DNA of 64,000 nt from NCBI GenBank assembly GCA_040905385.1, contig JBBDRP010000002.1, positions 459,526 through 523,525 on the forward strand, written 5' to 3'. Both the position numbers and the translations under genes were made by a program. This document shows, piece after piece, positions 33,215 to 59,604 of the stretch (position 1 is its first letter; every line of letters begins with the position of its first letter). The DNA is from Minisyncoccota bacterium (GTDB lineage: Bacteria > Patescibacteriota > Minisyncoccia > Phycocordibacterales > SW-6-46-9). The notes beneath the pieces are model-generated. The model ran no database searches. It was not told where the DNA came from and was given only the letters and a program-made list of their open reading frames with translations.

Positions 33215-33285
33215 TGCCGGATCGTCTAATGGTAGGACGCATGGTTCTGGTCCATGTAATCTAGGTTCGAGTCCTAGTCCGGCAA
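33215..33285 (+). tRNA. tRNA-Gln (anticodon CTG)
   Basis: Cloverleaf folds by hand: acceptor TGCCGGA/TCCGGCA, anticodon stem CATGG/CCATG with loop TTCTGGT, T-arm CTAGG-TTCGAGT-CCTAG. Confidence 0.8.
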
Positions 33286-33463
33286 CAAATTAAACGAAGT
33301 GCGATTTGGTGCCGGAAGCGAGTGCATTTCTGCACTCGCGTCAGGATTCGAAAGCCGCAGTGATGTCTGCGTTTGGCGTAGCCAAGGCGCAGACCACGAG
33401 GCGGGGTCGCGGAATTTTCTTGTCAGAGAAAATATCTGTGACCGAGTCCTAGTCCGGCAACAA
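33286..33463 (+). mobile_element. non-coding insertion downstream of tRNA-Gln ending in a 21-nt direct repeat of the tRNA 3' end
   Basis: cgagtcctagtccggcaacaa occurs at 33268-33288 and 33443-33463. The internal core 33358-33442 is about 75% identical to 52846-52922. Confidence 0.35.
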
Positions 33464-33521
33464 TTCAATACAGCTCTCGCAAACGCTCAAGCTTTACTCA
33501 GTATTTGATATACTAAAATAC

Positions 33522-52702: not shown

Positions 52703-52786
52703 GCCGGGATGATGGAATTGGTAGACATGCAGCACTCAAAATGCTGTGAGCTTACGCTCGTGAGAGTTCAAATCTCTCTCCCGGCA
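52703..52786 (+). tRNA. tRNA-Leu (anticodon CAA), class II
   Basis: GCCGGGA acceptor, AATTGGTAGA D-loop, anticodon stem CAGCA/TGCTG with loop CTCAAAA, long variable arm, GAGTTCAAATCTC T-arm. Confidence 0.8.
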
Positions 52787-52942
52787 CATCGGGACTAATG
52801 CAAATTTATTTGCATTAGTTGAGATTTGAAAGGCACAGTGATGTTTCTGTTTGAGCGTAGTGAAAGGCAGAAACCACGAGCCGGGGTCGAGAAAAATTTG
52901 CGTCAGAAAATTTATTCGTGACCAAATCTCTCTCCCGGCACA
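52787..52942 (+). mobile_element. non-coding insertion downstream of tRNA-Leu(CAA) ending in a 20-nt direct repeat of the tRNA 3' end, 2 nt before tRNA-Leu(CAG)
   Basis: caaatctctctcccggcaca occurs at 52769-52788 and 52923-52942. Core 52846-52922 is homologous to 33358-33442. Contains the palindrome ctaatgcaaat-tt-atttgcattag. Confidence 0.35.
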
Positions 52943-52944
52943 CT

Positions 52945-53028
52945 GGGCGAGTGGCGGAACTGGTAGACGCGCACGGTTCAGGGCCGTGTGAGCTCACGCT
53001 CATGGGAGTTCGACTCTCCCCTCGCCCA
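52945..53028 (+). tRNA. tRNA-Leu (anticodon CAG), class II
   Basis: GGGCGAG acceptor, anticodon stem CACGG/CCGTG with loop TTCAGGG, T-arm GGGAGTTCGACTCTCCC. Confidence 0.8.
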
Positions 53029-57173: not shown

Positions 57174-57419
57174 TTAAGATTTAGGAAATATTTTTTTATA
57201 CTTCCCGTTAATATACTGGTAAGCATGTGCATGAACATCTTCTTCTCCTCTTTCTTTTTCATTAGCTATTTTTAAGGCTGACTGCTTGGACGAAATATTA
57301 CGAAGTATTGTGCGACGACCATCTTTACTACGAACAATACTAACGTAAAATTCACCATGCTGTGGATCTTTCTGCGTCGTCGTGCTGGTTTTTTTAAATA
57401 CTGCTTTTGACTTTACCAT
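57174..57419 (-). CDS. small basic hypothetical protein
   Basis: 81 aa. Strong GGAGGAG Shine-Dalgarno 6 nt upstream. Confidence 0.55.
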   Translation of the reverse strand: MVKSKAVFKKTSTTTQKDPQHGEFYVSIVRSKDGRRTILRNISSKQSALKIANEKERGEEDVHAHAYQYINGKYKKIFPKS

Positions 57420-57515
57420 TATAATTCTCCTCCTTGCGGAATTTTGATTGTTAAGGTGCTAGTGTATTTCTAGTATAGCAGAGTTAAAAATGCACACGTA
57501 ATAACTTATAAAACA

Positions 57516-57584
57516 TTCTCGCCGTCGCGATCTTGGCGGGTTTTACCCGCAGAAGTCCCGCTAAAGCGAGACGAAGGCGGGCCC
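57516..57584 (-). repeat. direct repeat copy A (distal) of the tRNA-Trp 3' end plus structured trailer
   Basis: First 40 nt are identical to 57921-57960. Overall about 90% identical to 57921-57987. Both copies end with cgggccc. Confidence 0.6.
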
Positions 57585-57673
57585 CTGCCGTCGCATAACC
57601 CATTCTTTGCGTAAAGCTACGAAGGGCAAAGAGCTATGGCAGGCACGGCACAGGGAAAATATTTGGTCACCAG

Positions 57674-57913
57674 TCATAAAAAGTGCCTGTTCATGAAAGC
57701 TCTTCCAGAACCAGACTTTAAATATTTTTCAAAATCAAAAGCCTTGTATTTTTCCTTGAAAGAAATATACATAACTAGGTCAATCGGAAGACGGTCAGAT
57801 GTTGCGGGTACATGACCATTCCTATGTCTGTGAAGACGTTCTTTCAAATCAGATGTGCAGCCGATATATGGTTTACCATCAGCACAACTGAGAATGTATA
57901 CATCGTAATTCAT
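57674..57913 (-). CDS. small GIY-YIG nuclease (YhbQ/UPF0213-like)
   Basis: DVYILSCADGKPYIGCTSDLKERLHRHRNG ... KSGSGRAFMNRH. 79 aa. Confidence 0.75.
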   Translation of the reverse strand: MNYDVYILSCADGKPYIGCTSDLKERLHRHRNGHVPATSDRLPIDLVMYISFKEKYKAFDFEKYLKSGSGRAFMNRHFL

Positions 57914-57920
57914 GACTAGG

Positions 57921-57987
57921 TTCTCGCCGTCGCGATCTTGGCGGGTTTTACCCGCAGAAGCTCGCTATGGCGAGCGAAGGCGGGCCC
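57921..57987 (-). repeat. direct repeat copy B: tRNA-Trp 3' end plus trailer hairpins
   Basis: Overlaps the tRNA-Trp 3' terminus (57981-57987). Contains hairpins gctcgc-cata-gcgagc and gcggg-taaaa-cccgc on the transcribed strand. Confidence 0.6.
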
Positions 57988-58053
57988 ACAGGGATTTGAA
58001 CCCCGAACTGAGGTTTTGGAGACCTCTGTTTTGCCAATTGAAACTATGGACCC
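57981..58053 (-). tRNA. tRNA-Trp (anticodon CCA)
   Basis: Reverse complement GGGTCCA-TA-GTTT-CAATTGGCA-AAAC-A-GAGGT-CTCCAAA-ACCTC-AGTT-CGGGG-TTCAAAT-CCCTG-TGGGCCC-G. Confidence 0.8.
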
Positions 58054-58974: not shown

Positions 58975-59604
58975 TTACTTATATTCACTAATCCACTTTT
59001 TGAGCAAAGTGAGCAACTTTTTGTCGTGATAACGGACGTGAATTAACCCATGAGGCATTCTGTCAATCTTTTCGATATCATAATCCTCACGAACATAAGG
59101 TTTTATGAATTGCTCTAAATCCACATCTGTTTTTTGTGACCAAAACCTCTTTAATTTACCTACATCATGATTTGCATAGCAATAAAGCAGAATTCGTAAC
59201 TTAGACTCGTCAATACCACAAATTGTCCGAAGAAAATCTAAGAACAAACATATCATCGCTACATCGCTATTTGCAAAATCAACAGTTCTTCCTTTTTTAT
59301 ACTTTGCTCCTTCGGCCCAGTATAGCATTATTCCGGCGACTTTCAATTTTTCTTCAGCAGTTGATAGTTGATCTTTCAGAATAAAAGAAGAGTCCCTGCT
59401 ATCAAATCTTACCCTATTGGCCTGAGACGCATTTCGACGTTCAAGTCCATTTTTACGCATGAAGTAACAGACAGCATCTAGACTGACTCCAAAATTATCA
59501 GCAATTTCTTGCATGCTAAGTGATTCATCATAATACAGCTTCCTAACATCAGAGACTCTTGAGTCTGAAATACTTGCCATGCATATACATGTTATATTAA
59601 ACAC
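58975..59604 (-). CDS. HTH-domain protein of unknown function abutting tRNA-Tyr
   Basis: N-terminal helix-turn-helix (LSMQEIADNFGVSLDAVCYFMRKNGL). C-terminal about 130 aa unassigned (AGIMLYWAEGAK segment). Confidence 0.55.
   Translation of the reverse strand: MFNITCICMASISDSRVSDVRKLYYDESLSMQEIADNFGVSLDAVCYFMRKNGLERRNASQANRVRFDSRDSSFILKDQLSTAEEKLKVAGIMLYWAEGAKYKKGRTVDFANSDVAMICLFLDFLRTICGIDESKLRILLYCYANHDVGKLKRFWSQKTDVDLEQFIKPYVREDYDIEKIDRMPHGLIHVRYHDKKLLTLLKKWISEYK

Follow-up and report, generated by a model that had tools for sequence, protein, structure and literature searches.

What is a gene for a 79-aa nuclease doing a few nucleotides behind a tRNA gene whose own 3' end recurs on the far side of the nuclease gene? 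The question is raised by a locus in a 64,000-nt stretch of the genome of a Minisyncoccota bacterium (Patescibacteriota; assembly GCA_040905385.1, contig JBBDRP010000002.1, positions 459,526 to 523,525), here called the window, in which tRNA-Trp is followed by a structured trailer, an open reading frame (ORF) for a GIY-YIG nuclease and a second copy of the trailer. A first-pass annotation of the DNA had described this arrangement as an inserted cassette bracketed by direct repeats, and every element of the description was found where it had been placed, but the repeats did not turn out to be the bracket. We propose, with a probability of about one half, that the locus belongs to a family of selfish, homing-like cassettes that target tRNA ends and are transcribed from the tRNA promoter, acting by a mechanism that we infer. 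Such a cassette would have two parts: a module of ~60 nt whose first base follows the ...R-CC end of a tRNA or transfer-messenger RNA (tmRNA) gene and whose apical stem, P3, repeats that gene's last 5-6 nt in inverted form, and a gene for a GIY-YIG nuclease of the Slx1/UPF0213 type, 78-80 aa long.

Linkage of the nuclease genes to tRNA and tmRNA ends

More than 1000 close homologues of the window's nuclease were found, mainly in Patescibacteria, most of them with 60-75% identity to it and lengths of 77-82 aa. From a scan of one genome per species, which yielded at least 547 confirmed loci, 80 loci of Patescibacteria and Bacteroidota were kept for comparison (cited below by numbers prefixed with L), and 72 of these had enough upstream sequence to be assessed. 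Two of the loci come from isolate genomes of Bacteroidota, L011 from Niastella yeongjuensis and L032 from Hyunsoonleella aquatilis. A co-oriented tRNA or tmRNA gene lies upstream of the ORF in 67 of the 72, at a median distance of 122 nt from gene end to ORF. The gene in question is most often tRNA-Ser (51 loci, five anticodons called), followed by tRNA-Trp and tmRNA (five each), tRNA-Asp and tRNA-Ala (two each), and tRNA-Val and tRNA-Tyr (one each). Even the five exceptions are instructive: four have a tRNA- or tmRNA-like 3' end that ARAGORN missed, and the fifth, L036, has a tandem array of the kind described below. With neighbours so varied, the gene does not hold a conserved chromosomal position, yet it stands almost always beside a tRNA-like gene. 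A housekeeping gene at a fixed position, which the first-pass annotation had named as something that would count against its reading, is thus not what the ORF represents: the 80 loci are distributed over six kinds of tRNA and tmRNA.

In full-text literature searches we could not find either this nuclease-tRNA linkage or the module described, the only relevant papers being those on SegB and a superfamily survey of 2006; both features appear to be new to the literature, and they are akin to free-standing homing-type nuclease cassettes and to tRNA-targeting elements. One locus, L094, carries a second and diverged GIY-YIG gene (1702-1962; 86 aa, ~40% identical) ~240 nt after a tmRNA gene, without the TTCG module, in the same genome as a typical cassette and 1.3 kb from it. 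The association of small GIY-YIG genes with tRNA-like genes may extend beyond the present subfamily.

A conserved hairpin module that copies the tRNA end

In nearly every locus the tRNA end is followed directly by a GC-rich module that starts with TTCG(C). Its first base falls exactly at the 3' end called by ARAGORN in 56 of 67 loci and within 1-3 nt of it in six more (62/67), and in these same loci the ORF lies anywhere from 39 to 399 nt from the tRNA end. From an alignment of 19 compact versions RNAalifold derives a single long hairpin, imperfect and made up of three helices, P1, P2 and P3, in which eight of 15 pairs show compensatory changes. The two hairpins named in the first-pass annotation both exist, but only as parts of this longer, conserved and covariation-supported structure. 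A covariance model built from the same alignment, R1, finds a match before the ORF in essentially all 80 loci, those cut by contig ends included. Against Rfam 15, only the tRNA passes the gathering threshold, and nothing meaningful was returned for the module up to an E-value of 10.

Statistical tests on 32 model-aligned modules bear out the fold. Paired cells make up 97.1% of the total, compared with 87.1% in shuffled alignments (0 of 500 reach the observed value) and 35-50% when the partners are slid along one another, and 54 cells carry double changes where 14.6 are expected. G.T wobble cells greatly outnumber A.C cells (36 vs 2), which indicates that selection acts on the structure in single-stranded form and in the sense polarity, be it RNA or top-strand DNA; the same asymmetry ruled out a symmetric double-stranded palindrome or protein-binding site as the selected feature.

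The sequence of the hairpin is tied to its neighbour. In 30 of 30 aligned modules the 3' arm of P3 reproduces the last 5-6 nt of the module's own tRNA, an agreement reached in none of 10,000 permutations. For tRNA-Ser the gene end TCCGCC is matched by the arm GTCCGCC, for tRNA-Trp of the window GCCCGCC by ACCCGCC, for tRNA-Trp of L055 CCCTGCC by GCCTGC, for tRNA-Tyr GCCCACC by GCCCACC, and for tmRNA CTCCACC by GTCCACC. Since the 3' arm equals the gene end, its partner in P3, the 5' arm, is the complement of the target's end.

Modules are also found without an ORF behind them, after tRNA genes in L045, L074, L010 and L054, and some loci contain nested perfect palindromes. Tandem arrays of up to four units of ~32 nt, each starting with TTC, ending with GTCCRCC and corresponding to the P3 portion of the module, are present in L061 (2768-2990), L023, L001, L028 and L036. 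Near positions 3256-3289 of L046 a perfect palindrome, a 34-nt insert CTTGCCTTCGCGTAGC/GCTACGGCGAAGCAAG, is nested within a larger hairpin, and the hairpin inserted in the window's displaced tRNA copy (see below) is likewise 34 nt longer than its counterpart in L103. Hairpins at these loci seem to grow by nested insertion.

The direct repeat of the window

The repeat that first drew attention to the window is real. Positions 57516-57555 are identical to 57921-57960 (40/40), as are 57572-57584 to 57975-57987 (13/13), and a gapped alignment of the copies, 67 and 69 nt long, has 64 of 69 columns identical; the initial estimates of 40 identical leading nucleotides and about 90% identity overall thus stand, the latter at a measured 92.8%. 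A 40-mer repeat is not expected by chance (0 in 100 shuffles of the window). Included in the repeat are the final 6 nt of the acceptor stem together with G and CC (GGGCCCGCC), and its distal copy, 57516-57584, comprising GGGCCCGCC and the trailer, begins 89 nt beyond the stop codon of the nuclease gene. R1 has two matches only in the window, and these are the two copies of the repeat. The 67/69-nt direct repeat is therefore two copies of the hairpin module and not the insertion scar of the cassette, because the repeated unit is the family's own module, which is anchored at the tRNA end and is also found alone, and because the orthologous locus L103 lacks the second copy.

The closest retrievable relatives of the window locus are two short contigs. 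L103, whose nuclease is 73% identical to that of the window, shows the order tRNA-Trp, module, ORF, TAATTT-GTGACC and AAATCCCAGTG, then a short hairpin with GGGCCCGCC behind it and, beyond a stretch of unrelated sequence, a conserved block followed by an 80-aa ORF. It gives a single R1 match even with filters off, so the cassette is present there without a second repeat copy. In L103 the 9-mer GGGCCCGCC is followed by A, so that it reads G-CCA, and then by the unrelated flank; this displaced copy shows the tRNA-Trp end with its native 3' flank, GGGCCCGCCA. Upstream of tRNA-Trp, positions 1-133 of L103 hold a partial copy of the tRNA-Trp 5' end (GGGTCCATAGT) and then a module-like sequence, CCACCCTTCGC...CTACGGTG..., which indicates that remnants occur on the 5' side as well.

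A duplication of the tRNA 3' end had been noted from the outset, and it exists, but the displaced fragment is longer than was then recognized. It measures 21 nt, running from C56 of the T-loop to the CC end, is split in the window into two parts by an inserted hairpin and is preceded by CTGGTGACC, which ends in GTGACC (Table 1). Two further duplications of tRNA 3' ends reported for the window also proved real, at tRNA-Gln (33259-33293 and 33434-33468) and at tRNA-Leu (52769-52793 and 52923-52947). The GTGACC terminus is common to the ORF-less inserts at these two tRNA genes, which belong to a family termed X2, and to the X2 insert of L102, which stands between tRNA-Trp and the cassette. GTGACC was considered as a general right end of the cassette and rejected, as it is confined to the lineage of the window.

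Both modules of the window sit directly on GGGCCCGCC, and both have an extra A (CCGCCAAGATC) that is missing from L102 and L103, which points to copying or gene conversion within the window's lineage. The second module rests on the displaced 21-nt tRNA end, which an earlier insertion with a GTGACC terminus would have left behind, and it may either have been added in this lineage or been kept similar to the first by gene conversion.

The nuclease

The first-pass assignment of the protein to the YhbQ/UPF0213 type of GIY-YIG nucleases is upheld by concordant Pfam, PDB profile and Foldseek matches. PF01541 scores 45.7 bits against a cut-off of 22.6; the PDB profile search returns only 1ZG2 (E 1e-12) and 1YWL, both UPF0213 proteins; and residues Y6, Y16, G18, R26, H30 and E62 are invariant in 32 homologues. 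The AlphaFold model (mean predicted local distance difference test score, pLDDT, 95.4) has three strands with flanking helices in a GIY-YIG fold, and its Foldseek matches down to E 0.03 are all GIY-YIG proteins, with UPF0213 at the top, Slx1 chains at ranks 2-9 and I-TevI at rank 30. Superposed on the model, the Slx1 nuclease domain gives a TM-score of 0.66-0.71, a root-mean-square deviation of 2.1-2.5 A and 24-33% identity, I-TevI a TM-score of 0.50. Judged by sequence and by the predicted structure, the protein is a catalytic domain of the UPF0213/Slx1 type, nearer to these than to UvrC, I-TevI or restriction enzymes, and it resembles 1ZG2, 1YWL and Slx1 as well in being a small single-domain protein. 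Its subfamily has a signature of its own (C10, GCT at 18-20, FEKYLKSGSGRAF), and identity between its members is 60-75% across two phyla. Pfam and NCBIfam matches are to GIY-YIG only, and no Y1 (HUH) transposase is present at the locus. To our knowledge, UPF0213/YhbQ-type proteins have no established function.

Signs of movement

Several observations suggest that cassettes have moved between tRNA genes. By protein nearest neighbours, Trp-associated genes are polyphyletic and have arisen several times from Ser-associated ones, and one Ala-associated protein shares 82% identity with proteins encoded beside tmRNA, the two kinds of target having the same end, CTCCACC. Read from these relationships, targets have been switched repeatedly between tRNAs with similar 3' ends. 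L073 and L081 stand at tRNA-Trp and have a P3 of the Trp type, yet their P1 carries the Ser-type arm GGAGAG or GGAGAC, which in these sequences looks like the footprint of a retargeting event.

L027 and L069 have in common only a 476-bp block, consisting of tRNA-Trp, module, ORF and a terminator hairpin, at 96% identity; their flanks show no relation by blastn or tblastx. A discrete block in two otherwise unrelated contexts favours a selfish, insertion-prone cassette as the best reading, one that had been put forward initially as a possibility. Solo modules and tandem P3 arrays are further signs of mobility. Displaced tRNA 3' fragments lie downstream in the window and in L103, L079, L015, L001, L056 and L062, and 18 of the 80 loci are less than 500 nt from a contig end, where 5.2 are expected.

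A proposed homing-like mechanism and what weighs against it

On the minus strand of the window, neither promoter-like nor terminator-like sites occur between tRNA-Trp and the nuclease ORF, so in compact versions such as this one the gene is probably read from the tRNA promoter. The nuclease transcript would then be freed by processing of the tRNA 3' end; the nuclease would make a break either where a tRNA end is unoccupied or in the hairpin; and repair would copy the cassette into the break in a homing-like manner, with the conserved tRNA as a portable homology arm. Slx1 is a structure-specific nuclease, and the Slx1-like fold together with the absence of a DNA-binding domain makes a structure-directed or pairing-directed mode of action plausible. 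A more specific version, in which the module sets the target through P3 and the nuclease is led to the tRNA end either because nucleic acids pair or because the duplex of the target is mimicked, is a speculative extension that we would not expect to hold.

SegB of phage T4 is the nearest precedent for such a mechanism: its 27-bp site includes the conserved T-psi-C stem-loop motif, and it spreads its own gene along with neighbouring tRNA genes (PMC2330249). The window protein shares with SegB, other Seg proteins and I-TevI the GIY-YIG core, with the conserved Tyr, Tyr, Arg, His and Glu at the same positions, and its gene, like segB, is embedded among or beside tRNA genes, tRNA and cassette forming here a block that recurs in unrelated contexts. 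In contrast to the window protein, which is a catalytic domain only, SegB and I-TevI possess a linker and a DNA-binding domain. The cassette family also differs from Seg elements in being chromosomal, with no phage, plasmid or viral relatives found, and in having a target-copying hairpin for which Seg elements offer no counterpart.

A number of observations weigh against a homing-like cassette. The 79 aa of the protein amount to the catalytic domain, with no DNA-binding domain and no partner ORF in the cassette, which, unlike the situation in I-TevI or SegB, leaves site-specific cleavage unexplained. ORFs are uniformly intact, which is unusual for homing endonuclease genes, as these normally decay, and protein searches of phage, plasmid and IMG/VR collections returned no relatives that could be vectors. 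In exact-protein look-ups, the cassettes P0087 and P0104 each keep a single unchanging context, free of polymorphism, on more than 20 contigs, and so look fixed rather than actively moving. No empty tRNA-Trp site from a close relative came to light, by DNA pattern or by synteny. Three relatives of the window locus all carry the nuclease gene. By the synteny route, no relative of the neighbouring DUF6498 protein exceeds 54% identity, and the two long contigs reached share no gene order with the window, whose genome is without a close relative in the collections covered. A metagenome scan for the pattern GGGCCCGCCTTCG...GCGGGTAAAACCCGC gave one contig, L081, which was set aside because its site, too, is filled, lies where the contig ends and matches the window at only 68% identity. 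Displaced tRNA fragments, which might have been expected to flank cassettes generally, are detectable in only ~10% of loci, and the long ones follow the termini of X2 inserts or of a further family, X3, and so may not be made by the cassette at all. A flanking tRNA-end duplication was accordingly ruled out as a general mark of the cassette; in a suffix-match scan ~10% of loci had clear copies and the other scores equalled those of controls. In the window itself, the five differences between the module copies all fall within 17 nt, and neither a recent copy nor an old relic fits this cleanly.

Alternative explanations

The nuclease could instead be a host factor of tRNA metabolism encoded in tRNA operons, the hairpin being an RNA element, a 5' stabiliser or an autoregulatory leader in imitation of the tRNA 3' end, and copy 2 a local duplication unconnected with mobility. 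The excess of G.T over A.C cells fits an RNA structure, the 3' arm of P1 often reads AAGGAG 8-15 nt before the ATG and could hide a ribosome-binding site, and intact, strongly conserved ORFs in contexts that are stable within populations are what a host gene would present. The 2006 survey of the superfamily, which grouped bacterial proteins of this type with Slx1 and reported neither adjacency to tRNA genes nor a leader hairpin, suggested a role in RNA metabolism and described bacterial Slx1-like GIY-YIG domains linked or fused to methyltransferases, among them a TrmH-like tRNA methyltransferase (PMC1564403). Yet the module stays on the tRNA end even where the ORF is 150-400 nt away, and module and ORF are separated in L022 and L075 by a terminator-like hairpin with a T run behind it, so that there the module is not the 5' untranslated region of the gene. 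Modules without an ORF, the many different tRNAs that serve as neighbours and the switching of targets are equally difficult to accommodate, as are the discrete block in unrelated contexts and the displaced fragments and stacked inserts that mark these places as insertion sites; nor would a factor acting on many tRNAs have reason to imitate the neighbouring tRNA alone. A host function is for these reasons unlikely.

A second alternative shares much with the homing-like cassette, the main difference being which unit moves. Here the module itself would be mobile, a small element of single-strand DNA comparable to REP/RAYT or IS200/IS605, with its insertion point 3' of YCCRC(C) and with the GIY-YIG protein as its structure-specific nuclease. 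The window would then record independent insertions of two modules, only one of which is accompanied by the gene. Solo modules, nested palindromes, tandem arrays of units ending in GTCCGCC (four in L061), selection as a single strand and the Slx1-like fold all suit such an element, and copy 2 sits exactly on the second copy of the target and has a lineage-specific indel in common with copy 1. Guide sequences of IS608 are complementary to the target, as is the 5' arm of P3. More generally, IS200/IS605, REP/RAYT, folded attC sites and the CTX-phage attP resemble the cassettes in having a conserved, strand-specific folded hairpin, ORF-less copies and element sequence that is both complementary and identical to the target. 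The cassettes differ from this group in relying on a GIY-YIG nuclease rather than a Y1 transposase or tyrosine recombinase, in their low copy number per genome and in their tRNA-end target. Two copies in 64 kb, both at tRNA-Trp, do not make a dispersed repeat, and GIY-YIG enzymes, which form no covalent intermediate, cannot rejoin DNA; we consider movement of the module by itself quite unlikely.

Integrase insertion into tRNA and tmRNA genes is classically marked by a 3' duplication that starts in the T-loop and by regeneration of an intact tRNA. A miniature integrative element of this kind, mobilized in trans by a tyrosine or serine recombinase with the repeats as attL and attR, would account for the T-loop-started displaced fragment, the intact tRNA, the use of tmRNA, the stacked inserts and the 93% identity of the repeat copies, but it is very improbable given that the cassette spans only 0.3-0.5 kb and has the nuclease as sole ORF with no integrase or other recombinase gene, that L103 lacks the second repeat and most loci lack any flanking repeat or regular attL/attR pair, that displaced fragments vary from 8 to 21 nt, unlike a fixed crossover site, and that neither the covariation inside the module nor its agreement with the tRNA end is a feature of att sites.

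Organization of the locus and other inserts at tRNA ends

The features of the window locus, all on the minus strand, are collected in Table 1, in window coordinates. Their order is tRNA, module 1, ORF, GTGACC terminus, the displaced tRNA end, which the inserted hairpin interrupts, then module 2 and flank, and the first base of module copy 1 is the base that follows ...GCC of tRNA-Trp. The 81-aa ORF of the flank is 35% identical (E 1e-13) to the 80-aa ORF of L103 (695-937), with the conserved block upstream of it (alignment A5).

Table 1. Features of the tRNA-Trp nuclease locus in window coordinates
Feature	Position	Strand	Basis or remark
tRNA-Trp(CCA)	57979-58053	-	ARAGORN; Rfam tRNA 55.8 bits
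D1, final 20 nt of tRNA-Trp, T-loop C56 to G-CC end, CAAATCCCTGTGGGCCCGCC	57979-57998	-	string positions
Leader hairpin module copy 1, 58 nt, GC-rich, TTCG...GGCGAGAA, helices P1/P2/P3	57921-57978	-	
R1 match to module copy 1	57920-57985	-	72.9 bits
Apical stem P3 of copy 1, GCGGGT-AAA-ACCCGC	57941-57955	-	3' arm repeats tRNA-Trp gene end (G)CCCGC(C)
Spacer of 7 nt, CCTAGTC, between module copy 1 and ATG of the GIY-YIG ORF		-	
GIY-YIG nuclease gene, 79 aa, UPF0213/Slx1 type	57674-57913	-	Pfam PF01541, E 8e-12
CTGGTGACC (GTGACC terminus), immediately 3' of nuclease stop codon	57665-57673	-	
D2a, displaced tRNA-Trp 3' copy, part 1, CAAAT[ATTTT]CCCTGTG, from T-loop C56	57649-57665	-	alignment with L103 (GTGACCAAATCCCAGTG) and L102 (GTGACCAAATCCCTG)
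Hairpin inserted in displaced tRNA copy, CCTGCC-ATAGC...GCGAC-GGCAGG	57585-57648	-	alignment A5
Nested palindrome inside the inserted hairpin	57604-57632	-	no counterpart in L103
D2b, displaced tRNA copy, part 2, GGGCCCGCC	57576-57584	-	
Module copy 2, solo (no ORF after it), on displaced tRNA end	57516-57575	-	not in L103
R1 match to module copy 2	57515-57582	-	71.6 bits
Downstream 81-aa ORF, host flank	57174-57419	-	position kept in L103; orthology anchor

Elsewhere on the minus strand of the window, a 209-aa ORF (58975-59604) stops 6 nt short of the tRNA-Tyr 5' end; no more than an N-terminal helix-turn-helix is recognized in it (YlxM/sigma-70 region 4-like), the C-terminal ~140 aa being without a match.

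X2 inserts lack an ORF and occur in the window at tRNA-Gln (33287-33433) and tRNA-Leu-CAA (52788-52922), in L102 (61-222) and in L049 (~2660-2810); they have the core GGATTYGAAAGSC...CGAGNCGGGGTMG, an A+T-rich hairpin, the GTGACC terminus and a displaced tRNA copy from the T-loop to the 3' end. In minimum-free-energy folds, X2 and the displaced fragment are closed by an acceptor-like stem formed with an X2-borne copy of the tRNA 5' strand (TGCCGGA/TCCGGCA for Gln), and GGATTYG of X2 pairs with the displaced T-loop region, the predicted outcome being a tRNA-like chimeric RNA of ~170 nt; for the X2 insert Rfam gave nothing but tRNA, at the gathering threshold as well as at E up to 10. X3 inserts (...GAGAAGTTyAyMCTGAGCGAAG...) are found at tRNA 3' ends, each followed by a displaced tRNA 3' fragment, in L056, L063, L094 (3358-3470) and L079, in the last of which the insert comes after the ORF and ahead of the displaced tRNA end; a remnant follows GGGCCCGCC in L103. 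Several insert families are found stacked at a single tRNA.

Implications

If the cassettes are indeed selfish, they would rank among very small selfish elements, a hairpin of ~60 nt and a gene of 240 nt, for which tRNA ends, among the most conserved sequences of genomes, would be landing site, promoter and homology arm in one. They would have spread through two phyla, the reduced genomes of Patescibacteria included, and would give proteins of the UPF0213/YhbQ type a concrete role. They would also account in part for the duplicated tRNA 3' ends that clutter these genomes, where leftover partial tRNA copies could pass for tRNA gene fragments; the closeness of cassettes to contig ends suggests, moreover, that assemblies break at them.

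The rule that relates hairpin to tRNA end suggests that target specification can be read from sequence. Should the module in fact set the target through P3, a few base changes in this stem would suffice for retargeting, and the switches from Ser to Trp and from Ala to tmRNA look like traces of such changes; the family would then represent a homing system in which nucleic acid specifies the target and a GIY-YIG nuclease is the enzyme, and the ORF-less X2 and X3 inserts at other tRNAs could be its non-autonomous passengers.

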